This document shows, in pieces, positions 17,187-62,542 of a DNA stretch of 64,000 nucleotides (positions are counted from its first letter, which is position 1; each line of letters begins with the position of its first letter). The notes below the pieces were generated by a model. The model searched no databases, was not told where the DNA came from, and was given only the letters and a program-made list of their open reading frames with translations. The translations under genes were made by a program, and so were the position numbers. Source of the DNA: Candidatus Komeilibacteria bacterium. GTDB taxonomy: Bacteria; Patescibacteriota; Patescibacteriia; UBA1558; 2-01-FULL-52-15. The stretch is taken from NCBI GenBank assembly GCA_043801745.1, contig JAZDLR010000001.1, positions 24,374-88,373 of the forward strand, given 5' to 3'.

Positions 17187-17298
17187 TATTAAATACCTCA
17201 CCTGTCCTCTCCTTCAAAAGGAGAGGAACGCTATTTAAGTGGCTTGCCCCCTACTGTTCCACCATACATCACCCCTCTCCTTTTCTAAGGAGAGGGTT
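17187..17298. mobile_element. MITE-like element with terminal inverted repeats, copy 1
   Basis: cctcacctgtcctctcctt ... aaggagagggttggggtgagg, with internal hairpins ctctccttcaaaaggagag and ctctccttttctaaggagag. Copies 2 and 3 are at 35172 and 62431. Confidence 0.6.
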
Positions 17299-17325
17299 GG
17301 GGTGAGGTTGTCTAATAACATGGCG

Positions 17326-19970
17326 TTACTCTAACTTCACCCTAGCATCAGCCAACTTCTTCTTTACTTCGTCCACCACCTTTCGCGGCGCACGGGAAGT
17401 AAAATTACTATCGGCTAATTTGGCTTCTAAATCGGCAATATATTTTTTCAATTCGGTCTGGTCAACGCTTTTCTCAACTCCCTGAATATCGGTAATTAAT
17501 CTAAACCAACTACCTTTTAGTTCCAGCTTTGATTCCACCTGATCTACCAGCTTCACGCGGCCTAGTGTTTCAATAAATGGCTTCAACGAATCGATCTTTG
17601 GCTGACCAATATACTGTACCTGACTAATCGTAGCCGCTGCTACTTTATTTTCCGCGCGGGCATTACGTAATACGGTCACAATTTCCTGCAATTTCTTCAT
17701 CTCTTCCGCTGCCCCGGTTACCGAGCCCCGATTACCGGTTACTGACGCCTCCTCCGGCCACTGCTCAATCATCAACAACTTATCCTTATTCACCTGTCCC
17801 CAAATTACTTCAGTCACAAACGGAATAAACGGATGCCAGAGCTTAAGTAGATTCTGCAACAAATATAATAATAAGCCATCGCGGTCTTTTTTGGTCTCGG
17901 GTTTAATCCGATTCTCAATTTTCGCAAGCTCGAGATACCAATCCGCGAACTTAGACCAGGTAAAATCGTAAAGTTTTTCCGCGGCCAGAGAAAACATTTT
18001 TTCGTTTAATAAATTGGTTACTTCCGTCACTAACCCGGTATACTCGTACCAAATCCAATAATCTATGTCACCGGATAAAACCGGCAGTTCTTCGATTAAT
18101 TTCGGCTGTTCAACACTGGTTAAGATAAAGCGGGAAATATTCCACAGCTTATTAATAAAGTTGCGGTAGCCCTGAATCTTTTCCGTGTAAAATTTAGAGT
18201 CACTGCCAGGACTAATACCGGCAATTAAACTCAAACGCAATGAATCCGCGCCATACCGACGGACAATATCCATCGGATCAATGCCATTACCTAAGGACTT
18301 AGAAAACTTTTTGCCTTCCGTATCGCGCAACATACCGTGGAAATAAACTTCCCGAAACGGAATTTGATCCAGAGCATACGTGGACATCATAATCATGCGT
18401 GCCATCCAGAAAAACAGCAGTTCATAACCCATCTGCATCCAGGCTGTCGGATGATACTGCTTCAAATCAGGAGTTTCTTTTGGCCAGCCGAGAGTGCTGA
18501 AAGTCCAAGTGCCGGAGGAAAACCAAGTATCAAGAGTATCTTCATCTTGCTGCCAGCCATCGCCAATTGGCGGTGTTACTCCGACGTACATTTCGGAGGA
18601 GTTAGTAGAAAGAAGCAAGGAGGAAGGGTTATCTTCCCTAGCTTCTTTCTCCTTTCTCCTGTCCTATACCAAACCGGAATCCTGTGGCCCCACCAAATCT
18701 GCCGGCTAATACACCAATCATGTAAATTATCTATCCACTGTAAATAACTTTTGCTAAAGCGCTCGGGCTGAATCGCAATTATATTCTCTTTCTTGCCACC
18801 GTGCCCAGTAGTTACTGCTTCACGCATCAGATCTTTCAGACTTTTTCCTTTTTTAGGAATCTGCTTATTGACATCAACAAACCACTGCAGTTTAATCTGC
18901 GGTTCCACTGGCACGTTGCCGCGGTCACTGATGGCCACGCGGTGAAGATAATCTTTTTTCACGTCATAAACTAAACCTTTTTTCTCAAGTTTCTGAACAA
19001 TCTTAGCTCGGGCTTCGCTAATGCTTAAACCCGCGAATTCTCTGGCAATAGGCAGCATTTTTCCGTCAAAGCCAATAATCTGCACTTTATCTAATTTATG
19101 CCGTTCAGCAATATCAAAGTCAACGCTGTCATGCCACGGCGTAATGGTCATGGCGCCAGTGCCAAATTCCGGATCAATAACTTTATCCTTAATAACCGTG
19201 GCCTTCACCGGACCGTTAATCCATTCGCAGTCAAAAGTATCACCATGCTTATATTTCCAATAACGCTTATCATCCGGATGCACCACGACATATTTATCGC
19301 CCAATTTAGTTTCCGGCCGGGCCGTAGTAATGATAAACGGCCCAAAGTGAAAATAATATAAGGGAATATTTTCTTCCTGCCAAACCAGTTCATCATCAGA
19401 AACCGTGGTCGCTAGTTTCGGATCCCAGTTAACGATCCGGTGTCCACGGTAAATCAAGTTATCATTATACATCCGGATAAACATCTCATTTACTGCCGCT
19501 GATCTCTGCTCATCAAAAGTATAAGCCAACCGTGACCAATCACAGCTGGTACCCATAATTCTAATTTGCTTTAATATCGTTTCCCGTGATTTATCCGCGT
19601 AATCTTTGATTAGCTGTAATAATTTCTCGCGACCCAATTCTGTCCGTGGATCTTTATATTTACCCGAAGCAATTAATTCTTTCTCTACCCGTGCCTGCGT
19701 GGCTACGGCCGCGTGATCAGTACCGGGCAGTAACAAAGTTTTCTTGCCCAGCATGCGTTGATAGCGGATCTGTAAATCCATCAGAGCATTTTCCATCGCA
19801 TGGCCCAAATGTAAAACTCCGGTCACATTTGGCGGCGGCATCATAATGGCATAGGGCTCACCTAAACTCGTGGCTAATTTATCCGGATTAAAATATCCTG
19901 AACTTTCCCAGATATGATAAATATCTGATTCGTAATTCGCTGGGTTATATATTTTTGGTAATTCTTTCAT
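17326..19970 (-). CDS. valS: valine--tRNA ligase, split by a frameshift into two ORFs (18576..19970 and 17326..18618)
   Basis: The N-terminal ORF carries PPPNVTGVLHLGHA (HIGH) and WCISRQIWWGHRIPVWY. The C-terminal ORF carries DTLDTWFSSG and KFSKSLGN (KMSKS). The frames change within a purine-rich/pyrimidine-rich segment of about 74 nt between the IPVWY and EMYVGV codons. Confidence 0.85.
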
Positions 19971-19988
19971 AGTATTATGTTTGTCCTT

Positions 19989-20053
19989 CCCCTCCTTACT
20001 AAGGAGGGGTAAGGCCCGCCCGCCTGCGAAGCGCAGCGAGTCGGGCGGGGGTG
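19989..20053. repeat. GC-rich nested-hairpin repeat (CCCCTCCTTACTAAGGAGGGG family), copy 1
   Basis: cccctccttactaaggagggg followed by gcccgcccgcc...cgggcgggggtgg. Related copies lie at 54996-55062 and 58600-58685. Confidence 0.5.
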
Positions 20054-20390
20054 GTAAAAAAATAAAACGCCAATAATAACTATTCGCGTTAACGGCCCCG
20101 CACCAAGCGCCGCGCTGGTGCGGGGCAAGCCCCGACAGCTGACGACACTAGATACAGAGAGACACCACCTTTAACAATACTCAATTTTCGCTGTAACGGA
20201 GCGCCCCGGCACGTTCTACTACCCTTGGTAGGGATTCTTCGAGCTACTCTTCCGCACAACTAAGCGGAATTTCTAGGAGACATTACCTAGATCTAGAGTA
20301 TTTATGTTTTCAAATCGACACCCCTTTTAATTTGGCTTTTGGATAGCCATACCGAGGCGCACTTTTAATGTAGCTCTGGGCTTATAAATA

Positions 20391-20432
20391 GTCAACCCCG
20401 TTAGAAACGCATTATTTCTAACGGGGTCAAGC
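20391..20432. repeat. palindromic element, copy 3 (perfect arms)
   Basis: gtcaaccccgttagaaa-cgcatta-tttctaacggggtcaagc. Confidence 0.6.
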
Positions 20433-20506
20433 AAATTTAAAGAGCCCCGCGCATTTCTGCACAGGGCTCCACGGACGTGATGTCCGGAATGGGTTACGTT
20501 TGCTAA

Positions 20507-21127: not shown

Positions 21128-21336
21128 GGTTAGCCTCCTTCGTCGGCGTACCTCGTATCCCGCGCTTTGCAGGACGTAGGCGTACCGCTCTCTGGGGTAA
21201 TCTATATGGAAGCAGTGAAAACTGCCTATTTACTAGCTATGTTGTAATGTGCGTTGAATAACATAATAATAGCATATACATCAAAATCTGTCAATGGTTC
21301 GGCAAGCTCACCACATAAAAAAATGGCTATTATTAG

Positions 21337-23365: not shown

Positions 23366-23378
23366 CGCATCACCTCCA

Positions 23379-23903: not shown

Positions 23904-24452
23904 ATGAGCATAATCATTAAACGCAGCCGCCGCAAAACTCTGCAATTATCCGTTCACCTTGTTAGAAATGGGACTTCTAACGGGGTTAATCCCGCGATCC
24001 AAATAATAGTCCGCGCTCCGCTGACACTGCCGCTGTCACGCATTCAATTATTTGTCCAACAAAAACAAGCCTGGATAAACCGGGCCATTCACAGGCAGAG
24101 CAATCGCCTCCCCTTACCGCATAGCCCGCAGGATTATAAAAAAAACAAATCTCTGGCTAGAAAAATTATCTTGGAACGTCTGAATCAATTAAATGACACC
24201 TATCAGTTACATTGGAAACGGTTGACGATCCGCAACTCCCGCACCCGCTGGGGTAGCTGTTCGCGGCAGGGAAACTTGAATTTCAATTATCGGATTATAT
24301 ATTTGCCACCAGAACTACAGGATTACGTCATTGTGCACGAACTTTGTCATTTGCAGGAGCTAAATCATGGAAAAAAATTCTGGCAGTTGGTGACCAGGGT
24401 CATCCCCAACTTTTCTGTAACACGAAAACAACTTCGACAATACAGTCTATAA
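23904..24452 (+). CDS. DUF45 / COG1451 (YgjP-like) zinc-dependent metallohydrolase carrying an in-frame palindromic-element insertion
   Basis: IIKRSRRKTLQLSV...IIVRAP at the N-terminus, and the zinc site VIVHELCHLQELNHGKKFW (HExxH). Codons for LVRNGTSNGVN are contributed by the palindromic element at 23957-23991. Confidence 0.7.
   Translation: MSIIIKRSRRKTLQLSVHLVRNGTSNGVNPAIQIIVRAPLTLPLSRIQLFVQQKQAWINRAIHRQSNRLPLPHSPQDYKKNKSLARKIILERLNQLNDTYQLHWKRLTIRNSRTRWGSCSRQGNLNFNYRIIYLPPELQDYVIVHELCHLQELNHGKKFWQLVTRVIPNFSVTRKQLRQYSL
23957..23991. repeat. palindromic element, copy 5, inserted in frame within the DUF45 gene
   Basis: ccttgttagaaatgggacttctaacggggttaatc has a degenerate left arm. It lengthens the SV...IIVRAP spacer by about 10-11 codons relative to the family norm. 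Confidence 0.55.
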
Positions 24453-28395: not shown

Positions 28396-28434
28396 GTCAA
28401 CCCCATTAGAGATAACTCTTTAATGGGGTCAAGA
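28396..28434. repeat. palindromic element, copy 6
   Basis: gtcaaccccattagag-ataact-ctttaatggggtcaagagcc. Confidence 0.5.
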
Positions 28435-32561: not shown

Positions 32562-35171
32562 ATGTATTTACAAAAACTGGAAATCCAAGGCTTCAAATCT
32601 TTTGCTCATCAAATAGAGTTGGTCTTTAACCGTGAATTAACAGCCATTGTCGGACCCAATGGCTCAGGCAAATCTAACATTGCTGATTCCGTGCGCTGGG
32701 TCTTGGGCGAACAGAGCGTTAAATTATTACGCGGAAAAAAATCTGATGACGTGATTTTTTCCGGTTCCGACAAAAAGGCCCGGCTAAGTTTCGCTCAAGT
32801 TGATCTGCATCTGGATAATAGCGATCATCAGGCGCCGGTTGATTATGATCAGATAGTCATCAGCCGCAAAATCTACCGTGACGGCGAAAGTGAATATTTA
32901 TTAAATAATACTAAGGTTCGCTTATCCGATATCCAAATCTTATTGGCCAAGTCACACTTTGGCCAGAAAACCTACAGCGTCATTGGTCAGGGCACAGTTG
33001 ATCATTTATTAACTCTGTCTTCAGCCGAACGTAAAGATTTTTTTGACGAAGCTACCGGCGTTAAACAGTATCAGATCAAAAAAGACCAATCAGTAAATAA
33101 ATTACTGGCCACGCATGAAAATTTAATCCAAGCGGAAAATATTTTAACGGAAATTACTCCCCGTCTGCGTTCCTTATCGCGGCAAGTGCGCCGGTTGGAA
33201 TTAAAAGAAGAGAATGAAAAAAAACTTCAGGATCTGCAAACGCAATATTACAGTTTCTTATCCCAAACCTTACAAACGGAGCTAAATAAAGTTCAAGGCG
33301 AAAAGAAACAACAGGAAAGCAAAGTGGCGAAAGTTAAAACCGAACTGGATAAAGTCGGCAGTCAATTAGAACAGCAATCAGTCGGGCCTTCAAGAAATCA
33401 GGAATTTGATTTACTGCAGAAAAAGTTAACTACCCTGCAGGATGAATACAATCTCTTAAGCCGCGAGAAAACCCGTCTGGAAGGCAGCCGCGATCTGGAT
33501 CTGATGAAATCCGGCAAACAGGATCTGGTCTGGCTACAGGCACGGTTAGATACCGTTAACAACAAGGTCAGCAAACTGCAAATTGAGGTTGAGGAACATA
33601 GCCGCACACTGACAACTAAGAAAAAGCTAACGCAGGATTTGGGTCAGAAAATCTCGGCTCTGGATCTGCAGATTAAACAAATAGAAAAGCAGATGCGGGA
33701 AAATCTGGAGCCGCATGCTGACTGGGATAAATTAGCGGCAGCCGCGTCTAAACTGGAATCTGATCAGGTGGAACTGGACGAACTGATTCAATTAGCCGCC
33801 GATGACTCCGGCTGGCAGCAGGTCAAGAAAACTTGGTTGAATTTTGGTCAGAGTTTAAAGACCTTTTGGCAAACTTTCCGTAAGCCCTCGCCAGCTAATC
33901 AAACTAAACTCTTAGAAGAGTTTCAGAAATTATTAGCTGAGAAAGACGTTCTCCAGCGGCAGTTACAAACGGAAAAGCTGGCCGAACAAAGTAGTGAGCA
34001 ACAGGTTGTCTCACTTAAACAGCAGTTGCAGGAATTAGAACAGGAAAAAATCAAAATCAACGAGCAAATGACTGACGCCGGTGGCCGCTCTTCGACTGTC
34101 AATGCCAGCCAGCTGCAGGAATTAGCTTCTAAGCTAACTAAACAGGCGCAAGCTATTGCCGAGATCACCAAACAAATTGGCAACTTCAACCAATTAGAAG
34201 AGGGCAAGAAGCAACAAATACTGGAGTGGCAGAAAAGCTTCAGCCGTGCGCAGTATGATTACAATTTGCTGGGTCAGGATTTGAATAAATATAATATTGA
34301 GCTAGCTAAATTAGAAACCCGCGAAGAAGATCTGCAACGGGAAATTAGAGAAGAGTTTCCGCAGTTTCAGGCGACTAAGGTTAGTAGCCTGAATTCTGAA
34401 GAAGTCCGCGATAAAATAAATGATCTAAAAAAGCAATTGGCTGTCATCGGCAGTATTGATGAAGCTACGATGTCGGAATATACCGAAGTGAAAGAACGGC
34501 ACACATTTTTAACGCAACAAACGGCTGATCTGAAACAGGCTACCGCCAGTTTACAGAAATTAATTAAAGAACTGGACGAAACAATTGCCAAACAGTTTAA
34601 TGACAATTTCGTCCATATTAATACTTACTTTAATAAATACTTTAAAAAACTCTTTAGTGGCGGTACGGCGAAATTAATCTTAGAAATGAAACAGCCGGAG
34701 GAAGAGGATCTTGGGACTGGGGACTCGGAACCCGTCGGTACATCCTCAACAACAAGCCCCAAGTCCCAAGTCCCAAGTCCCGATAAAAGTCGAGAGTTAA
34801 AGTTCCAATCCTTAGAATATGGTATTGAAATTCAAGCCACGCCTCCGGGTAAAAGATTATCCGGCATTGCCATGCTTTCCGGCGGTGAGAAAGCTTTAAC
34901 TGCTATTGCTCTGATCTCCGCCATTATTGCTAACAACCCCTCGCCCTTTGTCGTGCTGGATGAAGTTGACGCCGCTCTGGATGAAGCTAATTCCGTGCGC
35001 TTCGCCGAAATCATTGATGAGCTTTCGGATAAAACTCAATTCATTGCTATAACGCATAACCGCGCTACCATGCAACAGGCCAAAATACTTTATGGTGTGA
35101 CTATGGGTGATGATGGTATTTCACGCCTATTGTCAGTTAACTTTAGTGAGGCTGATAAGATAGCCGCCTAA
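32562..35171 (+). CDS. smc: SMC-family chromosome segregation ATPase (short form, 869 aa)
   Basis: N-terminal LEIQGFKSFA...VGPNGSGKSNIADSVRWVLGEQS, long coiled coils, and C-terminal LSGGEKALTAIALI...VLDEVDAALD. Confidence 0.85.
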   Translation: MYLQKLEIQGFKSFAHQIELVFNRELTAIVGPNGSGKSNIADSVRWVLGEQSVKLLRGKKSDDVIFSGSDKKARLSFAQVDLHLDNSDHQAPVDYDQIVISRKIYRDGESEYLLNNTKVRLSDIQILLAKSHFGQKTYSVIGQGTVDHLLTLSSAERKDFFDEATGVKQYQIKKDQSVNKLLATHENLIQAENILTEITPRLRSLSRQVRRLELKEENEKKLQDLQTQYYSFLSQTLQTELNKVQGEKKQQESKVAKVKTELDKVGSQLEQQSVGPSRNQEFDLLQKKLTTLQDEYNLLSREKTRLEGSRDLDLMKSGKQDLVWLQARLDTVNNKVSKLQIEVEEHSRTLTTKKKLTQDLGQKISALDLQIKQIEKQMRENLEPHADWDKLAAAASKLESDQVELDELIQLAADDSGWQQVKKTWLNFGQSLKTFWQTFRKPSPANQTKLLEEFQKLLAEKDVLQRQLQTEKLAEQSSEQQVVSLKQQLQELEQEKIKINEQMTDAGGRSSTVNASQLQELASKLTKQAQAIAEITKQIGNFNQLEEGKKQQILEWQKSFSRAQYDYNLLGQDLNKYNIELAKLETREEDLQREIREEFPQFQATKVSSLNSEEVRDKINDLKKQLAVIGSIDEATMSEYTEVKERHTFLTQQTADLKQATASLQKLIKELDETIAKQFNDNFVHINTYFNKYFKKLFSGGTAKLILEMKQPEEEDLGTGDSEPVGTSSTTSPKSQVPSPDKSRELKFQSLEYGIEIQATPPGKRLSGIAMLSGGEKALTAIALISAIIANNPSPFVVLDEVDAALDEANSVRFAEIIDELSDKTQFIAITHNRATMQQAKILYGVTMGDDGISRLLSVNFSEADKIAA

Positions 35172-35260
35172 CCTCACCCCAACCCTCTCCTTAGAAAAGG
35201 AGAGGGAGGATGCACAGTGGGATAGTGTTCCTCTCCTTTTGAAGGAGAGGGCAGGTGAGG
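35172..35260. mobile_element. MITE-like element, copy 2 (inverted orientation), abutting the smc stop codon
   Basis: cctcaccccaaccctctccttagaaaaggagagg...ctctccttttgaaggagagggcaggtgagg. Confidence 0.55.
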
Positions 35261-35399
35261 TATTCAAAAAAACATATGAATTGACATAATCCCTCTCCTA
35301 TAGTAATATCCTCCCATCAATATCTTCTTGATACTTGATTCCTACTCACAGCGCGAAATAGCTAATCAGTAGGACAGAACAACTAAGTACCATAAGCTT

Positions 35400-35849
35400 A
35401 TGCTTACTATCCGTCTTTCCCGGATCGGCAAAAAGAAGAAGCCCTTCTATCGCCTGATCGTATCCGAGAAAACTAAAGACCCCTGGGGAACGTTCTTAGA
35501 ACAGTTGGGTCATTTTAATCCCCACACTAAACAAACCGTGCTGAAAACTGACCGGATCAAATACTGGATCAGTGTCGGCGCGCAGATGTCTAACACCGTC
35601 AGCAACCTCTTGGTTAAAGAAGGTGTAATTAAAGATAAGAAAAAGAAATCGGTCTATATCTCGAAAAACCGTCACGCCAAAATTGAAAAAGCCAAGCCTC
35701 AGCCACAGCCAGAGGCTGTCAAAGGAAAGGCTGATGAGAAACCAGTTGAGTCTGCTCCGGTAGCTGAAGAAAAACCTGAACCAAAAAAAGAAGCCAAGGT
35801 TGAGGAAGTAAAAACCGAAGAACCAAAGGCTGAAGAAACTAAAGAATAA
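35400..35849 (+). CDS. rpsP: 30S ribosomal protein S16 with a Lys/Glu-rich C-terminal extension
   Basis: MLTIRLSRIGKKKKPFYRLIVSEKTKDPWGTFLEQLGHFNP. Confidence 0.85.
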   Translation: MLTIRLSRIGKKKKPFYRLIVSEKTKDPWGTFLEQLGHFNPHTKQTVLKTDRIKYWISVGAQMSNTVSNLLVKEGVIKDKKKKSVYISKNRHAKIEKAKPQPQPEAVKGKADEKPVESAPVAEEKPEPKKEAKVEEVKTEEPKAEETKE

Positions 35850-40625: not shown

Positions 40626-40660
40626 TCACCTGCCAGCACTTTTACCCTGCCATTCGGGGA

Positions 40661-40701
40661 CTTGTCCCGTTAGAAGCAACGCTTCTAACGGGACTTGACA
40701 A
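40661..40701. repeat. palindromic element, copy 7 (perfect 13-bp arms)
   Basis: ttgtcccgttagaag-caacg-cttctaacgggacttgacaag. Confidence 0.55.
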
Positions 40702-41162
40702 GAGGCCCAACCTTGTCTAAACTGATGCTACTTGCTCTTTGTAGCCCCTTTATCCATCAACATCCATTTCATTTCCTTGAGGCTTGAAACCTCATACCGG
40801 AGTAGCTGCCGGTAACAATCTAATGAGTTGAGAACAAACAGTAGTATCTGTAGCTCGGGTATTTCTGTTTTTTCTTAACGCCGAATCCGTGGCCAAAGGA
40901 TAAATGGAACCTAAATAAATTTCTGACGTTCCGATTCGAAGACCGCGAATGGCGTTAACCCGCCGTATCGAGCTCAGCTCGAGAAGGAGGGTTGTCCGAC
41001 ATTAAACGAACAAGAGAAGAGCACCTTGACAACTGAATCAACAGCAACACCATTAGATAGTGAATAACAATTGAAATGTGACGGTTAATGTCAATTCGTT
41101 GCTGCGTTCTGCGCAGTAACATAACATGAATTTTTTTCGAGCCTACAAGCTCACTCTAACAA

Positions 41163-42775
<1,613 letters not shown>

Positions 42776-44091: not shown

Positions 44092-44168
44092 GGGCGCGTA
44101 GCTCAGGTGGTTAGAGCGCGTCACTGATAATGACGAGGTCGATGGTTCGAGTCCATCCGCGCCCACCA
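44092..44168 (+). tRNA. tRNA-Ile (anticodon GAU)
   Basis: GGGCGCGTAGCTCAGGTGGTTAGAGCGCGTCACTGATAATGACGAGGTCGATGGTTCGAGTCCATCCGCGCCCACCA. Confidence 0.9.
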
Positions 44169-44295
44169 GTGGTTGATAATAGTGATACTTCGTACGGCGG
44201 TAAACGAAGGACACCGCAAGGCTCCTTCTCGGCTAGCTCGAAGTTGCCAACGGGTCAGGCTGAAAATCCAAAACATTTCTCTGGTGCCATATTGA

Positions 44296-44370
44296 GCCGA
44301 GGTAGCTCAGTGGTAGAGCGAAGGACTGAAAATCCTTGCGTCGGCAGTTCAATTCTGCCCCTCGGCACCA
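44296..44370 (+). tRNA. tRNA-Phe (anticodon GAA)
   Basis: GCCGAGGTAGCTCAGTGGTAGAGCGAAGGACTGAAAATCCTTGCGTCGGCAGTTCAATTCTGCCCCTCGGCACCA. Confidence 0.9.
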
Positions 44371-44434
44371 GAGAAATGTCGAGGATACTTGCGCTGTGCC
44401 CGGCCGAAGCCGAGTAGCAACGAGGCGAAGGCGG

Positions 44435-44470
44435 GTCGGCAGTTCAATTCTGCCCCTCGGCACCAGAGAA
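44435..44470 (+). repeat. 36-nt direct duplicate of the tRNA-Phe 3' end (T-arm, acceptor and trailer), 59 nt downstream of the gene
   Basis: gtcggcagttcaattctgcccctcggcaccagagaa at 44340-44375 is repeated exactly at 44435-44470. Confidence 0.7.
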
Positions 44471-44487
44471 GTTTTATCAATCTATTT

Positions 44488-44564
44488 CGGGGATTGGCGC
44501 AGTTGGCTAGCGCGCCTGCTTTGGGAGCAGGAGGCCACCAGTTCGAGTCTGGTATCCCCGACCA
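44488..44564 (+). tRNA. tRNA-Pro (anticodon UGG)
   Basis: CGGGGATTGGCGCAGTTGGCTAGCGCGCCTGCTTTGGGAGCAGGAGGCCACCAGTTCGAGTCTGGTATCCCCGACCA. Confidence 0.9.
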
Positions 44565-44569
44565 CCGTC

Positions 44570-44884
44570 ATGACTTTCTACGACCAGGTTTATCATCTGA
44601 CTAAAAAAATCCCCCGTGGCCGCGTGGCTTCGTATGGTCAAATCGCCAGCTTAATTTCTACGCCGCGCGCGGCACGTGTAGTCGGTTGGTGCCTACACGT
44701 TATGGATAATGATTCGGCTCTGCCCTGGCACCGAGTTATTAATAGCAAAGGATACATCTCCACCACTTGCGAAACGCATCCGGCTGATCTACAGGCAGCA
44801 CTTTTAAAAAAAGAAGGGATTAAAGTAACTCGTAAAGATAATCTTTGGTGGATAGATATGAAGCAGTATCAATGGAAACCGTAG
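44570..44884 (+). CDS. alkyltransferase-like protein (MGMT/Ogt DNA-binding domain with Trp in place of the acceptor Cys)
   Basis: YGQIASLISTPRAARVVGWCLHVMDNDSALPWHRVINSKG has PWHRV where MGMT has PCHRV, which marks the ATL subfamily. The start lies 5 nt after tRNA-Pro; the ORF-track start at 44336 runs through two tRNAs. Confidence 0.7.
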   Translation: MTFYDQVYHLTKKIPRGRVASYGQIASLISTPRAARVVGWCLHVMDNDSALPWHRVINSKGYISTTCETHPADLQAALLKKEGIKVTRKDNLWWIDMKQYQWKP

Positions 44885-44993
44885 CAGTTGACAGTTGCCC
44901 GCCACGACTCGCCGTCTTTGGCGAGGCGGGTAAGTTGAAAGTTGATAGTATATCCCTTCTGACAACTTACAACTTAAACCTAACATCTAACAG

Positions 44994-45067
44994 GCGGGTA
45001 TCGTATACTGGTATTACCTCAGCTTTCCAAGCTGATGAAAGGGGTTCGATTCCCCTTACCCGCTCCA
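44994..45067 (+). tRNA. tRNA-Gly (anticodon UCC)
   Basis: GCGGGTATCGTATACTGGTATTACCTCAGCTTTCCAAGCTGATGAAAGGGGTTCGATTCCCCTTACCCGCTCCA. Confidence 0.85.
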
Positions 45068-48788: not shown

Positions 48789-48961
48789 TTAATAATAAGC
48801 CTTAACCATCTTAGATGAACTATTTTAAGGGCTTGACCCTGTTTCAAGCATCTGTAAAAAACTTCTAATGGGGTTGACATCGGTATTGACAAAATAAGCC
48901 AGATGTGATAAAAGGATTAATCGATTCGCTATATGCGAATCTTTTTTATTAGAGAAAGCCT

Positions 48962-54042: not shown

Positions 54043-54990
54043 ATGATTTTCTTCCTCCACGGCCCTGACCATTACCGGGCCAAAGTAACCATTGACTCCA
54101 TCAAAGAAAAATACCGCTCGGCAGTTGATCCCAGCGGTCACTCTATCTATACTTTTGATGGCGAATCTTTAGATTGGTCGCAACTGCTTAATCTGCTTAA
54201 GGGACAGGGATTTTTTAGTCACAGAAATCTTATAATTATCCGCGACATTTTATCCCATCCCGAGTGGGAAGAATTTGAGCAACCCTTTTTAGATTGGCTA
54301 GCACTACAGAAAGACACCAAAGACGAGCACTACCTAGTCCTCTGGCAGCCACAAAGCAAATTACCGACTAAACATCCTCTGATTAAGGCTCTGCAGCGCT
54401 TCAAATACGTGACGGAATTTTCCGAGCTAGCGGGCGACGCGCTGGAACGTTGGGTAGCGGCTGAAGCCAAAAAATTTAATGTCTCTTTTACCGCCGAAGC
54501 TATCAGGCTGCTAATTGAACTGGTCGGCACTGATACCTGGGAACTGCATAATGAAATCCATAAATTATGCCACTGCGGGCATAACCCAATAACACTACCG
54601 GTGGTCCAGGAATTTATCAGTGGCAAAATCACTAATCAGATTTTTCAAGCTATTGATGCCTGCGGCCAGAGAAAAAAGGCTTCGGCCCATGACCTAATTG
54701 AAACCTTGCTGCGTAGCGGAGCCGAAGGATTATATATTCTAGCCATGATTGCCCGCCAATTCAGACTGTTAGCGCAGGTTCCCACCAATATCGGTTTAAA
54801 TAATTCTTACGCCTTAGCCTCGCATCTGGGAGTTCATCCTTTTGTGGCTAAGAAATTACTGCAACAAACGCGCAACTTCAGTCCCGATCAATTAACCGGT
54901 ATTTATCAGGCTCTGATAGCTAGCGATAACCGTCTCAAACTTTCTGCCAACGAACGCGCCACCCTAGCCCTACTGATCGAAAAGATATAA
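54043..54990 (+). CDS. holA: DNA polymerase III delta subunit (HolA-like clamp-loader subunit)
   Basis: A 315-aa ORF with an N-terminal MIFFLHGPDHYRAKV...IYTFDGESL pattern and the helical C-terminal domain typical of delta. Confidence 0.6.
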   Translation: MIFFLHGPDHYRAKVTIDSIKEKYRSAVDPSGHSIYTFDGESLDWSQLLNLLKGQGFFSHRNLIIIRDILSHPEWEEFEQPFLDWLALQKDTKDEHYLVLWQPQSKLPTKHPLIKALQRFKYVTEFSELAGDALERWVAAEAKKFNVSFTAEAIRLLIELVGTDTWELHNEIHKLCHCGHNPITLPVVQEFISGKITNQIFQAIDACGQRKKASAHDLIETLLRSGAEGLYILAMIARQFRLLAQVPTNIGLNNSYALASHLGVHPFVAKKLLQQTRNFSPDQLTGIYQALIASDNRLKLSANERATLALLIEKI

Positions 54991-54995: not shown

Positions 54996-55062
54996 AAGGA
55001 GGGTCTACCACCCCTTTCCCCTCCTTGCCAAGGAGGGGAGGTCGACAGACCGGGGTGGTATC
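54996..55062. repeat. GC-rich nested-hairpin repeat (CCACCCC...CCCCTCCTTGCCAAGGAGGGG...GGGGTGG), copy 2
   Basis: ggtctaccacccctttcccctccttgccaaggaggggaggtcgacagaccggggtggta, with outer arms gagggtctac/gtagaccctc. Confidence 0.5.
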
Positions 55063-56272: not shown

Positions 56273-58243
56273 TTATTTTTTTCGACCCCGCAAAACCGCT
56301 ATCTGATCCCGCAGGCGAGCCGCTGTTTCAAATTCCAAATTAGCCGCGGCTAGTTGCATTTGCTGTTCCAGAGAATGTAATAAAAAATCCTTTTCTCCAA
56401 CTGATAAACCTTTAATTTCATCTTTAAATTCAGCTTTTACATCCAAACCCTTCAAAGAGGCGGCTTTAATTGCTTTAATAATTGTCTGCGGCGTTATGTG
56501 GTTCGCCTTGTTATATATTCTCTGCTTATCGCGGCGGCGGTTGGTTTCATCTATAGCCTGTTTCATTGATCTGGTTACTGTATCGGCATACATAATGACT
56601 TTACCTTCTACGTGGCGGGCCGCACGGCCAATGATCTGGATCATGGCTGTGGCACTACGTAAAAATCCTTCTTTATCCGCGTCTAAAATAATTACCAAAG
56701 ACACTTCCGGCAAATCTAATCCTTCGCGCAACAGATTAATGCCGACCAAAACATCATATTTACCTTGCCGCAGATCGCGTAAAATATCTATCCGGTCCAA
56801 AGTATCCACTTCCGAATGCAGATATTGCGCTTTGATATTTTTTTCCAGCAACATTTCGCTAATATCTTCGGCTAATACTTTAGTTATAGTTGTTACCAAA
56901 ACGCGCTGACCATGGCTGACCCTGGCGTTTATTTCTTTAATCACGTCCTCCACCTGACCGGTTGTTCCGCGTACTTCAATTTCCGGATCTAATAAACCGG
57001 TTGGACGCACAACTTGTTCTACTACTTGTTTAGACAAACCCAGCTCATACTGATCCGGCGTGGCTGACATATAAACCGTCTGTCCGGTCCTCTGCCGGAA
57101 CTCATCATAATTCAACGGCCGGTTATCCAAAGCGCTGGGCAAACGCCAGCCGTAATCTATCAACATTTTCTTTCGCGCCTGATCACCGTTATACATGCCG
57201 CGGATCTGCGGCAGAGTCATATGTGACTCATCAACGACCAGAAAAAAATCATCAGGAAAATAACCTAGTAGTGTCTCCGGCGGTTCTCCGGCCTGCCGGC
57301 CGGCCAAATGCCGCGAATAATTCTCAATGCCGTTGCAATAACCAACTGACCGGATCATTTCCAGATCATACTTGGTCCTTTCTTCAATGCGCTGAGCTTC
57401 AATCAGCTTATTGTGCTGCTTAAAATATTGAATCCGTTCTATTAGCTCGGTTTCAATATTGGGCAGGGCTTTCTTAATATTAACTTCCGGCGCTAAGAAA
57501 TGTTTAGCCGGAAAGATGCTTAGATCTTTCGGTGTTTCTAAAATATCATGAGTTAAATAATGAACTTTTTCAATTTTATCTAACTTGTCGCCATCAAAAC
57601 GCAGACGGTAGTAATGTTCATCTTCGGCGCTAGGAAATATTTCCATATTTTCACCCTTAACCGTGAAATTACCGCGCGTTAAAACCGTGTCATTGCGGTT
57701 ATATTGTAAAAAATTCAGTTGATTTAATAATTTATAGCGGGCATAAGTCTTGCCAATCTCTAATGTAATGCGCACCTGACTATAATCTTCCGGCGAACCT
57801 AATCCGTAAATACACGATACAGACGCGACAATTAAAACATCGCGCCGAGTGAGTAAGGCCTGCGTGGCTGCATGCCGCAAGCGGTCAATTTCTTCATTGA
57901 TCTGCGTTTCCTTGTCTATGTGCGTGTCAGACGCCGGTATATAAGCCTCGGGCTGATAATAATCATAGTAGGAAACAAAATAATGCACGGCATTATTGGG
58001 AAAGAAATCCTGAAACTCCGAAGCCAGCTGCGCGGCCAAAGTTTTATTATGTGAAATAACTAAAGTCGGTTTGTTAATTTTGGCCACAACATTGGCAATA
58101 GTAAAGGTCTTACCCGAACCAGTTACTCCCAAAAGAGTTTGATCGCGGTAGCCCTTTTTCAAACCAGTAGTCAATTGTAAAATCGCACTCGGCTGATCCC
58201 CAGTGGGTTTGAATTTGGCCTTAAGACTAAACTTATCTGCCAT
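56273..58243 (-). CDS. uvrB: excinuclease ABC subunit B
   Basis: GDQPSAI...GVTGSGKTFTIANV and the C-terminal UVR domain QMQLAAANLEFETAARLRDQI. Length 656 aa. Confidence 0.95.
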   Translation of the reverse strand: MADKFSLKAKFKPTGDQPSAILQLTTGLKKGYRDQTLLGVTGSGKTFTIANVVAKINKPTLVISHNKTLAAQLASEFQDFFPNNAVHYFVSYYDYYQPEAYIPASDTHIDKETQINEEIDRLRHAATQALLTRRDVLIVASVSCIYGLGSPEDYSQVRITLEIGKTYARYKLLNQLNFLQYNRNDTVLTRGNFTVKGENMEIFPSAEDEHYYRLRFDGDKLDKIEKVHYLTHDILETPKDLSIFPAKHFLAPEVNIKKALPNIETELIERIQYFKQHNKLIEAQRIEERTKYDLEMIRSVGYCNGIENYSRHLAGRQAGEPPETLLGYFPDDFFLVVDESHMTLPQIRGMYNGDQARKKMLIDYGWRLPSALDNRPLNYDEFRQRTGQTVYMSATPDQYELGLSKQVVEQVVRPTGLLDPEIEVRGTTGQVEDVIKEINARVSHGQRVLVTTITKVLAEDISEMLLEKNIKAQYLHSEVDTLDRIDILRDLRQGKYDVLVGINLLREGLDLPEVSLVIILDADKEGFLRSATAMIQIIGRAARHVEGKVIMYADTVTRSMKQAIDETNRRRDKQRIYNKANHITPQTIIKAIKAASLKGLDVKAEFKDEIKGLSVGEKDFLLHSLEQQMQLAAANLEFETAARLRDQIAVLRGRKK

Positions 58244-58598
58244 TATTTAAATGCCGTTTAATAATTTCAATCACTTCTTCCGTATTTTCATAAACTTCAC
58301 CATTACTGAAACGAATTACTTTAATGCCGTATAACTCAATATACTTTTGCCGCTCATTATCCATTTCCTCTGCTCCATCTACTAAATGACTTTCGCCGTC
58401 AATCTCAATTGCCAGCTTAACCTCTGGACAATAAAAATCCACCACATACTTTCCAATTCCATGCTGTCGTCTAAATTTATATCCGTTCAACTGACTACCC
58501 TTGAGTCGTAACCACAGCATTATCTCTGCCGGCGGCAGTGAGCTCCGTAAATCTTTACGTAAAGATTTGAATCGGTGTCGATTATATAATTTTGTCAT
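58233..58598 (-). CDS. DUF559 / Vsr-like endonuclease-domain protein
   Basis: KYVVDFYCPEVKLAIEIDGESH is the DUF559 (PD-(D/E)xK-like) signature. Length 121 aa, with the start overlapping the uvrB stop. Confidence 0.65.
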   Translation of the reverse strand: MTKLYNRHRFKSLRKDLRSSLPPAEIMLWLRLKGSQLNGYKFRRQHGIGKYVVDFYCPEVKLAIEIDGESHLVDGAEEMDNERQKYIELYGIKVIRFSNGEVYENTEEVIEIIKRHLNNGR

Positions 58599-58599
58599 A

Positions 58600-58685
58600 A
58601 CAGGGCATACAATTTTTGACCACCCCGGCCTATTGCCCCCCCTCCTTACTAAGGGGGGGGGAGGGGTGGTATGCCCTGTTATTAC
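58600..58685. repeat. GC-rich nested-hairpin repeat, copy 3
   Basis: aacagggcatac...ccaccccggcctattgccccccctccttactaagggggggggaggggtggtatgccctgtt is a three-level nested palindrome. Confidence 0.5.
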
Positions 58686-58786
58686 TTATTGTAATCACAC
58701 TATGCCAGACTTTTAATAAAATGAGAAGCCCGCAGAGAAACACAAAATACCTTGATTTTCAGGCCAAAATATACTACAGTTAGCCT

Positions 58787-59368: not shown

Positions 59369-59369
59369 C

Positions 59370-60383
59370 ATGGAAGTTTCCCTGAACATCCGGCCTAATC
59401 AGGAATTTTTGGATCGCTTTCCCATTGGCGCTTTCCTGCAGTCACGCTTCTGGGCTGAGGTTTTGAAACAGCAGGGAATAAAAAGTTGGCAACTTAATGT
59501 TTTCCAGAATCATCAAGTTATTGGCCAGTGTCTGCTCTACAGTCACAAGCTGCCTTTTGGTAAGGCTTATTTATATTCCGGCAAAGGGCCACTCATCAGC
59601 TTGGAACATGAATCAGAATTACGCGAAGCCTTTGGTTTATTCCTAACACAGATTAGAGACATCACGATTGCCACGGCCCATCGTCAGGAAATTTTTTGCC
59701 GCCTGGAACCAAGCATGGTACCACCGCAGTTAGAAATTCCTTTTGTTCCGGCTGCTCCGGTACAACCACAACTGACCTCGCTCCTTAATTTGCGGAAGAG
59801 CGAAGAAGAAATATTTCAAAAATTTAAAGAAAAAACCCGCTACAATATCCGCTTAGCCGAACGTAAAGGCGTAACCGTACACTGGGGCACCAGTGATCAA
59901 GCTTTAAAAATATTTTTGGACCTCCTGCCCCGTACCCAATTACGGCAACGTATTAGATCACACACCAACCGACACTACCGCGCCATTGTTAATGCCGGCC
60001 GGGAACACAATACTGTTAAAATTGCCTGGGCCGAATATCAGGGGCAACCGATTGCCGCCAATCTTTATATCCTATTTGGTTCAACCGTTACCTATTTGCA
60101 CGGCGCCTTTAATTATCATTACCGTGAAGTTATGGCGCCTCATTTACTGCAGTGGCAGGGAATTAAACAGGCAGCTTATCTGGGCTACAAATATTTTGAT
60201 TTCTGGGGCCTGGCTCCTAGCGACGGTTCACAGCCCAGTTGGGACGGCTTTACCCGTTTCAAACGCGGCTTTAATGGCATAGAAATTTCTCACCCCGGTG
60301 CCTTTGATTTTATCTATAACGACAGCTGGTACACCTTTTACCAGCGCGTACGTAAGGTCCGCCGGTTATTAAGACGCACCTAA
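59370..60383 (+). CDS. FemAB-family peptidyltransferase-like protein (peptidoglycan bridge formation)
   Basis: KTRYNIRLAERKGVTV is characteristic of the FemAB/GNAT-like family. Length 337 aa, immediately upstream of a Mur ligase gene. Confidence 0.55.
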   Translation: MEVSLNIRPNQEFLDRFPIGAFLQSRFWAEVLKQQGIKSWQLNVFQNHQVIGQCLLYSHKLPFGKAYLYSGKGPLISLEHESELREAFGLFLTQIRDITIATAHRQEIFCRLEPSMVPPQLEIPFVPAAPVQPQLTSLLNLRKSEEEIFQKFKEKTRYNIRLAERKGVTVHWGTSDQALKIFLDLLPRTQLRQRIRSHTNRHYRAIVNAGREHNTVKIAWAEYQGQPIAANLYILFGSTVTYLHGAFNYHYREVMAPHLLQWQGIKQAAYLGYKYFDFWGLAPSDGSQPSWDGFTRFKRGFNGIEISHPGAFDFIYNDSWYTFYQRVRKVRRLLRRT

Positions 60384-60384
60384 T

Positions 60385-61704
60385 ATGTACTGGAAAACAG
60401 TTGCGCACAAAATTATTCCCGACTCGCTGACCAAAGTCTATCATTGGTTATTAGCTCAAGCAGCAGCCCGTCAGTATCATTGGCCCAGCGAGTCAATGAT
60501 CGTTATTGCCATTACCGGTACTTCAGGTAAATCCACTACCTGCGAGATCCTCTGGCAGATTCTTCAGCATCAAGGTTACAAAGTCGGATTAGCTTCCGGT
60601 ATCCGTTTTTTCGACGGTGTTACTTCTGCGTCCAATAATACCAAAATGACTATGTTGGGCCGTTTCCGCTTACAAAAATTGCTGGCCCAAATGAAAACCA
60701 ATGGTTGTCAGTATGCCATTATAGAAACTACGTCACTGGGCTTAAGCCAATACCGTCACTTAGGAATCAACATTGATGTAGCTGCCATTACTAATTTCTG
60801 GTCCGAGCATGATGAGGCACACGGTGGTTTAGAACAATACCGCGCTGCCAAGGGTCAATTATTTCACCATCTTACTACTAAGCCGCGGAAAACTATTAAT
60901 GGCAAAACAATTGATAAAATCTCCGTACTCAACGCCGATGACGATAATTATCACTACTTTGCGCAATTTACCAGTGATAAACAATTAGCCTTTAGTTTAC
61001 AATCTCACAGACCCAATACATTAACTGCCGACAAAATCAGCTATCAGGCAGACGGCTGTAATTTTGCGATTGAAAATATCCCCTTTCATCTGCCACTGCT
61101 AGGCTCATATAACGTTACCAATGCGCTAACTGCTATAACTATTGCTTCCGGCCTGGGGGTTAGTTTAAATGATTCGGCTGCTGCGCTGCGAGGAATTGCA
61201 CCGGTGCCCGGTAGATTAGAATATATTGATGAAGGTCAGGATTTTACCGTCATTGTTGATTATGCCTTCGAACCTAAGGCCATGACCAAACTTTATGAGG
61301 TAATTATACAATTACCGCACAATAAGGTCATTCACGTACTAGGCACTACCGGCGGCGGCCGTGATGCCAAACGAGGCGGTATCTTAGGTGCTATGGCCGC
61401 TGACTTTGCTGATATTGTAATCGCCACTGACGAAGACCCCTATGATGATGATCCGCTGAAACTAATCCAGCGCGTGGCTACCGGCGCGCAAAATAAAGGT
61501 AAGGAACTGGATAAAAATTTGTTTATTAAACGAAACCGGCTGGATGGCATTACTAAAGCCGTTGATCTAGCACAGCCAGGCGATATTGTCTTAATCACCG
61601 GCAAAGGTTCCGAAGGCGCTATGGCCGTGGCTAATGGTAAGAAAATAGCGTGGGATGATCGGGAGGTAGCCCGGGCGGCGATTCAGAATAAGACAAAGCG
61701 ATAA
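60385..61704 (+). CDS. Mur ligase family protein (MurE-like)
   Basis: The ATP-binding motif IAITGTSGKSTTCEIL, plus the middle and C-terminal Mur ligase domains. Confidence 0.7.
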   Translation: MYWKTVAHKIIPDSLTKVYHWLLAQAAARQYHWPSESMIVIAITGTSGKSTTCEILWQILQHQGYKVGLASGIRFFDGVTSASNNTKMTMLGRFRLQKLLAQMKTNGCQYAIIETTSLGLSQYRHLGINIDVAAITNFWSEHDEAHGGLEQYRAAKGQLFHHLTTKPRKTINGKTIDKISVLNADDDNYHYFAQFTSDKQLAFSLQSHRPNTLTADKISYQADGCNFAIENIPFHLPLLGSYNVTNALTAITIASGLGVSLNDSAAALRGIAPVPGRLEYIDEGQDFTVIVDYAFEPKAMTKLYEVIIQLPHNKVIHVLGTTGGGRDAKRGGILGAMAADFADIVIATDEDPYDDDPLKLIQRVATGAQNKGKELDKNLFIKRNRLDGITKAVDLAQPGDIVLITGKGSEGAMAVANGKKIAWDDREVARAAIQNKTKR

Positions 61705-61718
61705 AGCAATATTGATTT

Positions 61719-62297
61719 ATGACCAAACCTATAAATTGCATCATCATCCACGGTTGTCCGTCTCCAAAAGAGAAAAATTATAACGCTGAGTCCAGAACCT
61801 ATGATAAACATTGGATGCCTTGGGTTAAGAAAGAACTACTGGCTAAGGGAATTAAAACAGAAACTCCGCTCATGCCCGAGCCGTGGGCGCCTGATTATGA
61901 AAAATTCAAAGCCGAGTTTGAGAAACTAGAAGTTAATGAAGACACGATATTAATTGGCCACAGCTGCGGTTGCAGTTTTTTAGTCCAATGGTTAGGCGAA
62001 AGTAAAAAAAATATTTCTAAACTTATTTTGGTAGCCCCGTGGAAAATTGCTACCACAGAATTTGAATTTCGGACAAAATTTTATGGCTTTCCTATTGATG
62101 AAACAATAAAAGATCGGGTCAAAGAAATAATTATGTTTACTGCTGATAATGAATGGCCCGAGGGAAAAGCCAGTTTAAAAATATTTCACGCTGCCTTAGG
62201 CGGTGAAGTGATAGAATTGAAAAACCACGGACACTATTTATTGAAACAAATGGGCACCGAGGAATTTCCGGAATTATTAAACGTCGTTTTAAAGTAA
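61719..62297 (+). CDS. alpha/beta hydrolase (RBBP9/YdeN-like serine hydrolase)
   Basis: IIIHGCPS...ILIGHSCG carries a GxSxG nucleophile elbow. Length 192 aa. Confidence 0.55.
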   Translation: MTKPINCIIIHGCPSPKEKNYNAESRTYDKHWMPWVKKELLAKGIKTETPLMPEPWAPDYEKFKAEFEKLEVNEDTILIGHSCGCSFLVQWLGESKKNISKLILVAPWKIATTEFEFRTKFYGFPIDETIKDRVKEIIMFTADNEWPEGKASLKIFHAALGGEVIELKNHGHYLLKQMGTEEFPELLNVVLK

Positions 62298-62430
62298 TAA
62301 AATGACCAAATCGGACTTAGAAAAAATCATAAACTACATAGTTGGCCAAGGACTGGCGGAAACGAAAGGTCTGGCAGCCGGGGTGAGAATATACGATTAA
62401 CTGATTATTGGAAATTGATTATTTGCATTA

Positions 62431-62542
62431 CCTCACCTGTCCTCTCCTTCAAAAGGAGAGGAACGCTATTTATAAAGCTAGTCGCTCTACTCAACCTCCG
62501 CGCATCCTCCCTCTCCTTTTCAAGGAGAGGGTTGGGGTGAGG
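62431..62542. mobile_element. MITE-like element, copy 3 (same orientation as copy 1)
   Basis: The first 45 nt and the last about 35 nt are near-identical to the copy at 17187-17298. Extended terminal inverted repeat ttacctcacctgtcctctcctt / aaggagagggttggggtgaggtaa. Confidence 0.6.

Follow-up and report, generated by a model that had tools for sequence, protein, structure and literature searches.

What are the short inverted repeats that recur in a 64,000-nucleotide stretch of a Candidatus Komeilibacteria genome (contig JAZDLR010000001.1, positions 24,374 to 88,373; this whole stretch is called the window, and its numbering is used throughout)? The original prediction, made from the letters of the sequence, described three copies of a 112-bp element resembling a miniature inverted-repeat transposable element (MITE). 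We report that each copy is, as judged from its sequence symmetry, an inverted pair of intrastrand triplex motifs (TMs) of the class called BoxC, PIT (potential intrastrand triplex), or TMECO in Escherichia coli, and that the same motif family flanks genes for DUF559 nucleases in many bacteria. We favor the reading that the TMs are cis sites and that the pairs in the window, like solitary TMs, are non-autonomous satellites of DUF559 cassettes, which we hold to be probable. BoxC/PIT/TM repeats have been known as orphan repeats for ~30 years, and DUF559 is an uncharacterized family of Vsr-like nucleases that comprises over 10,000 sequence clusters. To our knowledge, nobody knows what makes or moves the repeats or what role DUF559 proteins play.

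Each repeat is an inverted pair of predicted triplex motifs

All three predicted copies are present in the window sequence, as repeats of 94-117 nt designated A, B, and C (Table 1). Their size is not uniform (117, 94, and 116 nt, respectively), and copy A, placed earlier at 17187-17298, lies ~8-12 nt to the right of that span, at 17194-17310, while the spans of B and C shift only slightly. In the aligned copies, the conserved element runs from TACCTCACC through GGTGAGGT(T/A); copy B reaches only 94 nt because ~24 nt of its center are absent. The inverted orientation of copy B and its contact with smc were described correctly, in that the copy begins inside the smc stop codon (TAA, 35169-35171), whose final two bases are the first two of the element. 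Also borne out were the two internal hairpins per copy, which give six exact occurrences of CCTCTCCTT-N3-4-AAGGAGAGG (0.00 expected in 100 shuffles), and the non-coding, non-autonomous nature of the copies. Neither the copies nor ~50 scanned open reading frames (ORFs) of the window contain a transposase, an integrase, or a Y1/RAYT protein (repetitive extragenic palindrome [REP]-associated tyrosine transposase) by comparison with Pfam.

A TM unit consists of a homopyrimidine and a homopurine arm (CCCTCTCCTT/AAGGAGAGGG), which form a hairpin of 9-10 bp, followed by a 3-nt linker and a third arm of G, T, and A (GGGTGAGGTT). The arm GGGTGAGGTT is the base-for-base mirror of the purine arm AAGGAGAGGG, which is the defining property of a purine-type intrastrand triplex motif. 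Read in reverse, the purine arm is GGGAGAGGAA, and the third-arm triads are G·G, G·G, G·G, T·A, G·G, A·A, G·G, G·G, T·A, and T·A; at the right ends of the window copies, 10 of 10 triads are of the allowed kind. By these base matches, the third arm can be predicted to permit G·G:C, T·A:T, and A·A:T triads on one strand. A scanner set to accept only perfect Watson-Crick arms (8 bp or longer), with no more than one Hoogsteen mismatch, found eight class II TMs in the window, compared to a mean of 0.015 and a maximum of 1 in 200 dinucleotide shuffles. Six of the eight are the ends of the three copies, each perfect over 9-10 triads, and seven window motifs are free of mismatches over this length. 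The pairs combine two subtypes, a left unit of 9 bp with a TGT loop and a right unit of 10 bp with a TTG loop. Since the two third-strand arms lie outermost, they resemble terminal inverted repeats (TIRs). Thus, the ends reported as TIRs of ~22 bp are indeed inverted, but each of their bases is accounted for by a Hoogsteen third strand. When single-stranded, these outer arms can pair with each other to form a three-way junction, and the computed single-strand fold of the copies, on either strand, is an outer stem carrying two hairpins (z-scores -5.2 to -7.1).

Covariation between arms points in the same direction. Among 126 sequences, 28% of the pyrimidine/purine hairpins have a perfect mirror arm, compared to 2% when arms are swapped between types; about half of the hairpin readings are unable to score, because every palindrome is read on both strands. 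A second type occurs within the window, where the element at 55006 pairs AAGGAGGGG with GGGGTGGTA in place of AAGGAGAGGG with GGGTGAGGTT, and dozens of unrelated arm types occur elsewhere (for example, AGGGAAGG/GGATGGGT, AAAGAGGGG/GGGGAGATT, and AAGGGGAGG/GGAGGGGTT). Watson-Crick pairing cannot explain mirror covariation of asymmetric arms, which a triplex-type constraint, as suggested by these sequences, can. The 55006 element is one of three related single-hairpin elements that the original prediction had missed (19989-20056, 55006-55062, and 58617-58672), so that the 64-kb window contains three pairs and three singles of this repeat class.

Properties that bear on a transposon origin

A classical MITE would be an internally deleted insertion sequence (IS), whose ~22-bp TIRs are recognized by a transposase encoded elsewhere and which moves by cut-and-paste. 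The small size, inverted ends, lack of coding capacity, multiple copies, and foldability of the window elements recall MITEs such as Nezha, IS630-derived elements, and Correia/NEMIS, and related blocks are present or absent among relatives. We nevertheless consider this origin very improbable. The flanks of the three copies (TTAAA/GTCTA, TGCAT/ATCTA, and TTGAA/AGGCG) share no direct repeat, so that a target-site duplication (TSD) is lacking, and no matching IS or transposase was found among ~50 scanned ORFs of the 64-kb window. TA as a TSD of the Tc1/IS630 type was ruled out as well; the A alone is conserved, and this A ahead of CCTCACC is part of the triad register, which accounts for it. Moreover, as mirror third strands, the ends change together with the internal hairpin, which TIRs bound by a transposase need not do.

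Divergence between the copies is uneven. The left 44 nt of A and C are identical, nearly as predicted, while the right ends are 88% identical over 33 nt and the centers diverge as described. Counted by part, the motifs of A and C match at 68 of 71 positions (96%) and the centers at 30 of 47 (64%; Fisher p = 8e-6), which implies that the motifs are constrained or homogenized at each locus and is not expected of a recently transposed MITE. The motif is also too widespread. A cross-species scan with CCTCACC-N3-5-CCTCTCCTT-N3-5-AAGGAGAGG, using one genome per species, returned at least 120 stretches, and the matches listed came from Nostoc, Rivularia, many Patescibacteria, Armatimonadota, Chloroflexota, Nitrospirota, Bacteroidota, and others. 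Such breadth fits a lineage-specific MITE poorly. Solitary half-units made up the majority of the 120 matches listed, and TMs occur in all orientations, in divergent promoters, and inside ORFs, with many copies outside the window just before start codons. Holder et al. found TMECO unconnected to transposons, phages, and plasmids (PMC4666352). Thus, the MITE-like label is apt for a dispersed, non-coding, non-autonomous repeat, but not for one with no TSD, uneven divergence, solitary half-units, triplex-constrained arms, and a motif shared by many phyla. From the sequence associations described below, we infer that the autonomous partner, if there is one, would be a DUF559 nuclease cassette rather than an IS.

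The repeats belong to the BoxC/PIT/TMECO class

Early work on BoxC/PIT repeats was reportedly done by Bachellier in the 1990s and by Hoyne and Maher in 2000. In the later description, BoxC, PIT, and TMECO are one element of the form CCCTCTCCC-loop-GGGAGAGGG-N3-GGGTGAGGG, which falls under class II (purine-motif) intrastrand triplexes (Holder et al., 2015, PMC4666352). Strain MG1655 has 23 TMECO copies, always intergenic, of which five inverted pairs combine two subtypes, and TMECO marks unstable loci (PMC4666352). The window repeats share this order of pyrimidine arm, loop, purine arm, 3-nt loop, and mirror arm of G, T, and A. Their core (CCCTCTCC/GGAGAGGG/GGGTGAGG) is near-identical, and in both the first A is faced by T and the second by A. 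Like their E. coli counterparts, they are dispersed, mostly intergenic, present as singlets and two-subtype inverted pairs, and found in locally variable regions.

Differences were also apparent. The literal TMECO pattern, CCCTCNCCC N3-6 GGGNGAGGG N3 GGGNGAGGG, has no match, and the window reads CCCTCTCCTT/AAGGAGAGGG/GGGTGAGGTT with the same core. Window arms end in TT/AA (AAGGAGAGGG), in contrast to G/C in E. coli, which makes the repeats a sequence variant within the class rather than TMECO in the strict sense. In addition, the third strands face outward in the window and inward in most E. coli pairs, and the host is a bacterium of the candidate phyla radiation (CPR). The element is then unremarkable within a class that has been described but not explained; variant in sequence and arrangement, it extends the class to CPR/Patescibacteria.

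The site after smc is conserved but its content differs

Orthologous sites were compared for copy B; the valyl-tRNA synthetase (ValRS) homologs next to copy A are at most 60% identical, too distant for such a comparison. A TM-type element lies directly 3' of the smc stop codon in five of six lineages (62-100% SMC identity). Its type varies, from GGAGGGG/GGGGTGG with varying spacers in the relatives to the two-hairpin GAGAGG/GTGAGG pair in the window. A gene for a pterin-4a-carbinolamine dehydratase (Pterin_4a) is present between smc and rpsP in four related loci (L124, L125, L207, and L210) and absent in the window, where the repeat pair occupies its place (35172-35400 compared). By sequence comparison, the site thus appears conserved and its content swapped, with the type switched and the Pterin_4a gene lost in the window. 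A recent MITE insertion would not give this pattern, nor would a simple RNA motif under conservation. The relative with 73% identity is represented by four near-identical contigs (L121-L124), which differ by substitutions only and are uninformative on mobility. The earlier suggestion that three copies, if alone and orthologously conserved, would point to a regulatory RNA therefore received a divided answer: the post-smc site is occupied in most lineages, but the family has far more than three copies.

A cis-acting RNA at gene ends (a stabilizer of the 3'-untranslated region, a terminator, or a translational signal), selected for that function and unrelated to mobility, would account for the occupied site in these five lineages. 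It would also suit the strong fold, the start of three window elements 0-16 nt past a stop codon, and the purine arm, which resembles a Shine-Dalgarno sequence in a family with many copies elsewhere immediately before start codons. We judge this function distinctly unlikely. The units are symmetric and occur in any orientation and context, including divergent promoters and ORF interiors, and no U-tract follows the elements. Watson-Crick folding of RNA would leave the mirror of the purine arm in solitary units unexplained, and published work holds that RNA does not form purine-motif triplexes and that PIT elements are without promoter or terminator activity. Rfam contained no match at the gathering threshold and only chance-level matches at E up to 1 in a search that covered the copy A region.

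TMs flank DUF559 genes across phyla

Clustering of the ORFs in loci picked by the motif identified a single small protein, DUF559, in 8 of the 120 matches listed, from different phyla. All eight of these genes are tightly flanked by TMs, and the frame often runs through the 3' motif to the stop codon (ending in ..PHPNPLLGKERE). In the canonical layout, with the type found in the window, the 5' side reads CCCTCTCCTT..AAGGAGAGGG-nnn-GGGTGAGGT, then 15-35 nt, then the ATG of the DUF559 gene; on the 3' side, the gene is followed by ACCTCACCC-nnn-CCCTCTCCTT..AAGGAGAGGG and the stop codon.

The association held in the reverse direction, for 80 metagenomic loci picked by DUF559 peptide patterns alone (from a three-sequence alignment). 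A TM was found within 200 nt of a gene end for 56 of the 80 DUF559 genes, compared to 3 of 41 control ORFs from the same loci (p = 1e-11), and 37 of the 80 had TMs at both ends. TM density was 3.4 per kb near DUF559 ends and 0.17 per kb elsewhere in these loci, and the median gaps between TM and gene were 20 and 22 nt. The nearest upstream TM was on the gene strand by 33 to 10 and the nearest downstream TM on the opposite strand by 41 to 9, which implies that the third arms face the DUF559 gene. In a minority layout (L092 and Deinococcus), the third arms point outward with the gene at the center, which is the anatomy of the pairs in the window.

In five loci (L160, L173, L180, L185, and L205), a block of ~430 bp is conserved at 68-83% identity from outer TM edge to outer TM edge, and the flanks beyond these edges cannot be aligned. 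This abrupt end of conservation implies a discrete cassette in different contexts, and in these alignments TM-DUF559-TM behaves as a discrete cassette of ~430-500 bp in unrelated contexts. Other DUF559 loci have a pair-gene-pair layout or tandem arrays. In L169 and L175, pair units of ~100 nt are repeated on both sides of the gene. A tandem array of four 41-nt TM units also lies in L085 (1796-1960). As far as we found, flanking of DUF559 genes by the TM family across phyla appears to be new; no paper that we found connects BoxC or triplex repeats with DUF559 or YcjD, in a literature coverage that was partial, and an earlier description is possible.

The DUF559 gene of the window

The window itself encodes a DUF559 protein (Table 1), which matched the Pfam family with 107.8 bits (cutoff 20.6; E = 3e-31) and PDB entry 3HRL with E = 5e-19. 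The conserved D, E-x-D-G, and H residues (D54, E65, D67, G68, and H71) are invariant in nine sequences. A TM-type element (58617-58672) lies 19 nt upstream of the start codon and is itself enclosed by the inverted repeat ATAACAGGGCATA/TATGCCCTGTTAT (58598-58686). At the other end, the last 11 nt of the gene overlap the start of uvrB, and this overlap of frames suggests that the two genes may be translationally coupled. Both the TM element and a DUF559 gene overlapping the uvrB start are shared with L212 (UvrB 82% identical). By contrast, the block is absent in L213 (80%) and L214 (78%). In L214, the ruvA-uvrB gap is only 93 nt, and its ruvA-proximal part can still be aligned to the window. This pattern of presence and absence implies that a block of ~500 bp was gained or lost. 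A role of DUF559 in anti-phage defense was considered and rejected; PADLOC matches were weak and at the level of domains only.

Cultured bacteria and E. coli ycjD

We also inspected eight DUF559 loci on plasmids and chromids of cultured bacteria (Picosynechococcus, Synechocystis, Pseudanabaena, Deinococcus, Neisseria, Azospirillum, Sphingomonas, and Photobacterium). A TM-type hairpin with a mirror arm stands beside the gene in 8 of 8, spanning Cyanobacteriota, Deinococcota, and Pseudomonadota; the Picosynechococcus motifs, with arms of 5-6 bp, are under the scanner threshold and were spotted by eye only. The Deinococcus gene is bracketed by a perfect inverted repeat of 29 nt that includes the third arms, and the Sphingomonas cassette lies exactly between sufB and sufC. 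The same sufB-sufC gap holds a GIY-YIG gene in Azospirillum lipoferum (NC_016623.1, ~254967-256269), and small selfish nuclease genes seem to favor it.

In E. coli K-12 the DUF559 gene is ycjD. A degenerate TM lies across its stop codon, and TMECO #9 is 168 nt beyond the gene, a proximity with a chance of ~0.004. Within NC_000913.3 (1351330-1351470; L126 1330-1470), a 23-nt piece of the 3' coding end of ycjD (GAATATTCTCCAGCACCGTCTCC) is duplicated between ycjD and TMECO #9 and may be what is left of a longer or earlier cassette end. The gene lies at the fabI-sapF site, which holds eefRABCD in other phylogroups (PMC12817139), and is present in 3378 of 5426 complete E. coli genomes. Published TMECO counts are 19-30 in phylogroups A, B1, and C, where ycjD is present, and 1-2 in B2, where it is absent.

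A proposed cassette and its satellites

The left end of the window pairs, ACCTCACC-TGT-CCTCTCCTT..AAGGAGAGG-AAC, resembles the 3' end of a cassette (in L037, CCTCACCC-TGT-CCCTCTCCTT..AAGGAGAGGG-GAAC), and the right end resembles the 5' end of a cassette. By this resemblance, a window pair would be built as the 3' end of a cassette linked to a 5' end, with the gene missing.

This arrangement recalls the REP/REPIN system with its RAYT (Bertels and Rainey, 2011, PMC3116915). Both systems have hairpin singlets and inverted doublets without TSDs, a single-copy gene with inverted flanking units, and units whose sequence tracks the protein lineage. In contrast, DUF559 is a Vsr-like PD-(D/E)XK nuclease and not a Y1 transposase, with no transposition chemistry known, and a TM has a mirror third arm where REP has a GTAG-tagged palindrome. 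That the pairs are themselves REPINs, that is, REP doublets mobilized by a RAYT (an IS200/IS605-like Y1 transposase) acting on single-stranded hairpins, matches the singlets, inverted doublets, hairpin units, and lack of TSDs (PMC3116915). Yet it is scarcely credible, given that no conserved GTAG/CGTC tetranucleotide stands beside the hairpins, that no Y1 transposase is among the window ORFs, and that the gene actually flanked is DUF559 and no RAYT.

Free-standing homing endonuclease genes provide a second parallel. The Vsr-fold homing endonuclease I-Bth0305I (PDB 3r3p) has been grouped with DUF559 (PMC3424549). Like these genes, DUF559 is a small nuclease gene of the same fold family located between conserved genes (sufB/sufC and ruvA/uvrB) and polymorphic for presence and absence. 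Unlike DUF559, homing endonuclease genes are normally without bounding structured repeats or hundreds of gene-less satellites.

Following REP/REPIN-RAYT logic, TMs would be cis sites, and gene-less singlets and pairs would be satellites of the cassettes. By the same analogy, we infer that DUF559 may mobilize them: the Vsr-fold nuclease would nick extruded TM DNA, and recombinational repair would then copy, homogenize, swap, or delete TM-bearing segments. Such nicking and repair could account for conserved arms with drifting centers, the switch of type at a fixed site, and the loss of neighboring genes, and also for the instability reported by Holder et al. A wider proposal is that BoxC/PIT/TM repeats and DUF559 are one pan-bacterial selfish element, a TM-bounded nuclease cassette of ~0.45 kb with gene-less satellites, repair-driven spread and homogenization, and resulting instability; we put this forward tentatively, as a possibility that falls somewhat short of an even chance.

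Several points weigh against the satellite reading. The link between DUF559 and TMs is, in these sequences, one of association, and the insertion of cassettes into pre-existing TMs could fit it equally; TMs acting as expression signals could also fit. A TM type common to related DUF559 proteins is expected from linkage alone. The window gene lacks a 3' TM, its reading frame overlapping uvrB there, and so seems domesticated, and it is flanked by the GGGGTGG type, unlike the GTGAGG type of the three pairs. Phylogroups D, E, and F of E. coli, mostly without ycjD, still have 6-15 TMECO copies, and the relation between ycjD and TMECO counts is confounded by phylogeny and only suggestive. A stable triplex has been demonstrated in vitro, by circular dichroism and nuclear magnetic resonance, for the E. 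coli unit alone, and none was detected in vivo (PMC4666352). Finally, 24 of the 80 DUF559 genes (30%) have no TM at the scanner thresholds.

This last count also favors a purely structural DNA repeat, arising and spreading by replication slippage or recombination with no dedicated protein, in or beside which DUF559 cassettes, as well as further small stand-alone nuclease genes, would merely tend to land. Holder et al. tied TMs to local instability without an enzyme, and the GIY-YIG gene of Azospirillum sits at the same sufB-sufC site as the Sphingomonas DUF559 gene. Such a repeat seems unlikely to us. Given TM pairs travel with given DUF559 lineages, the conserved block does not extend past the outer TM edges, TMs show a strong orientation bias with respect to the gene, and the ORF often continues through the 3' TM to its stop codon. 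The GIY-YIG gene of the window (5062-5358), in turn, has no TM nearby.

The reproducible association between DUF559 and TMs across phyla makes both questions, the origin of the repeats and the role of the proteins, experimentally simple. The satellite reading, if true, would provide a mechanism for the instability measured by Holder et al. at TM sites and would explain small gene-sized insertions, such as sufB-DUF559-sufC and the replacement of eefRABCD by ycjD. It would also point to one origin of the in-frame peptide insertions (..PHPxPLLxKERG..) that unrelated proteins contain.

TMs within reading frames

In cyanobacterial loci L008, L011, L096, and L104, a TM lies in frame inside a Ser/Thr kinase (..KPHPSPLLGKEREKEIP..), and in L064, L084, L093, and L109 inside reverse-transcriptase-like ORFs (..TSPRPLLEKERR..). 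In their position within kinases, reverse-transcriptase-like ORFs, and DUF559 C-termini, members of the TM family are like Rickettsia palindromic elements (RPEs). RPEs are unrelated to TMs in sequence, and we know of no triplex symmetry or nuclease partner for them.

Features of the window

Coordinates of the repeats and of the DUF559 gene are collected in Table 1.

Table 1. Repeat elements and the DUF559 gene in the 64-kb window
Feature	Position	Strand	Description
Copy A	17194-17310	+	Inverted pair of triplex motifs; variable center of 46 nt
Copy A, left motif	17194-17227	-	Motif reads on the - strand
Copy A, right motif	17273-17309	+	CCCTCTCCTT ttct AAGGAGAGGG ttg GGGTGAGGTT
Copy B	35169-35262	-	Same pair, inverted; center of 23 nt
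Copy B, first motif	35170-35206	-	
Copy B, second motif	35230-35262	+	
Copy C	62429-62544	+	
Copy C, first motif	62429-62462	-	
Copy C, second motif	62509-62544	+	
Partial member	19989-20056	+	CCCCTCCTT act AAGGAGGGG hairpin, GC-rich hairpin, arm GGGGTGGTA; no left arm
Second-type element	55006-55062		TACCACCCC ttt CCCCTCCTT gcc AAGGAGGGG aggtcgacagacc GGGGTGGTA; third strand co-varies with hairpin
Triplex-type element	58617-58672		ACCACCCC ... CCCCCCCTCCTT act AAGGGGGGGGG a GGGGTGGTA
DUF559 gene	58233-58598	-	Vsr-like PD-(D/E)XK endonuclease family (PF04480), 121 aa
Second palindromic family, copies	2913-2943, 17150-17178, 20396-20426, 28401-28428		
Second palindromic family, variants	23961-23993, 40657-40689, 48864-48891		

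The end of copy A lies 16 nt past the stop codon of valS (17326-17328, - strand), and the partial member lies 19 nt upstream of the valS start. Downstream of copy B is an rpsP promoter-like sequence (TTGACA-17-TAATAT, 35281-35309). Copy C is located between convergent genes (61719-62297, +; 62651-63076, -), upstream of a hairpin followed by a T-run at ~62563-62590. The second-type element begins 16 nt past the stop codon of a holA-like gene (54043-54990).

A second palindromic family, (TT)GACCCCGTTAGA-N8-11-TCTAACGGGGT(CAA), has at least 4-7 copies in the window where 0 are expected, and one of these directly abuts copy A. Between a pilB/GspE-like gene and copy A, ~600 nt (16520-17110) are GC-rich (53-60%, compared to ~42%). 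This segment has no credible ORF and no Pfam or Rfam match, and it may be an unrecognized structured RNA or a gene remnant.

The free-standing GIY-YIG gene (- strand, 98 aa) lies between ruvB and gyrA. The valS gene (17326-19970, - strand) is split into overlapping ORFs at 18576-19970 and 17326-18618; public annotation lists its C-terminal half as a separate protein of 421 aa, and many ValRS entries from Patescibacteria are labeled partial. SMC, the C-terminal half of ValRS, and UvrB of the window have 100% identity to proteins encoded on a 112-kb contig of a Candidatus Komeilibacteria metagenome-assembled genome, and a cyanobacterial origin, considered because of heptamer-like repeats, was rejected on these matches. 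Look-ups of identical proteins for the C-terminal ValRS half, S16, a 192-aa hydrolase, and SMC returned no record. The 16S rRNA gene (41157-42773) is 1617 nt long, compared to 1533 nt for the model, and therefore carries an insertion. It is followed not by a 23S gene but by an ORF and a loose cluster of tRNA genes for Ile, Phe, Pro, and Gly (44092-45067). Both the length of the 16S gene and the missing adjacent 23S gene fit a typical CPR/Patescibacteria host.

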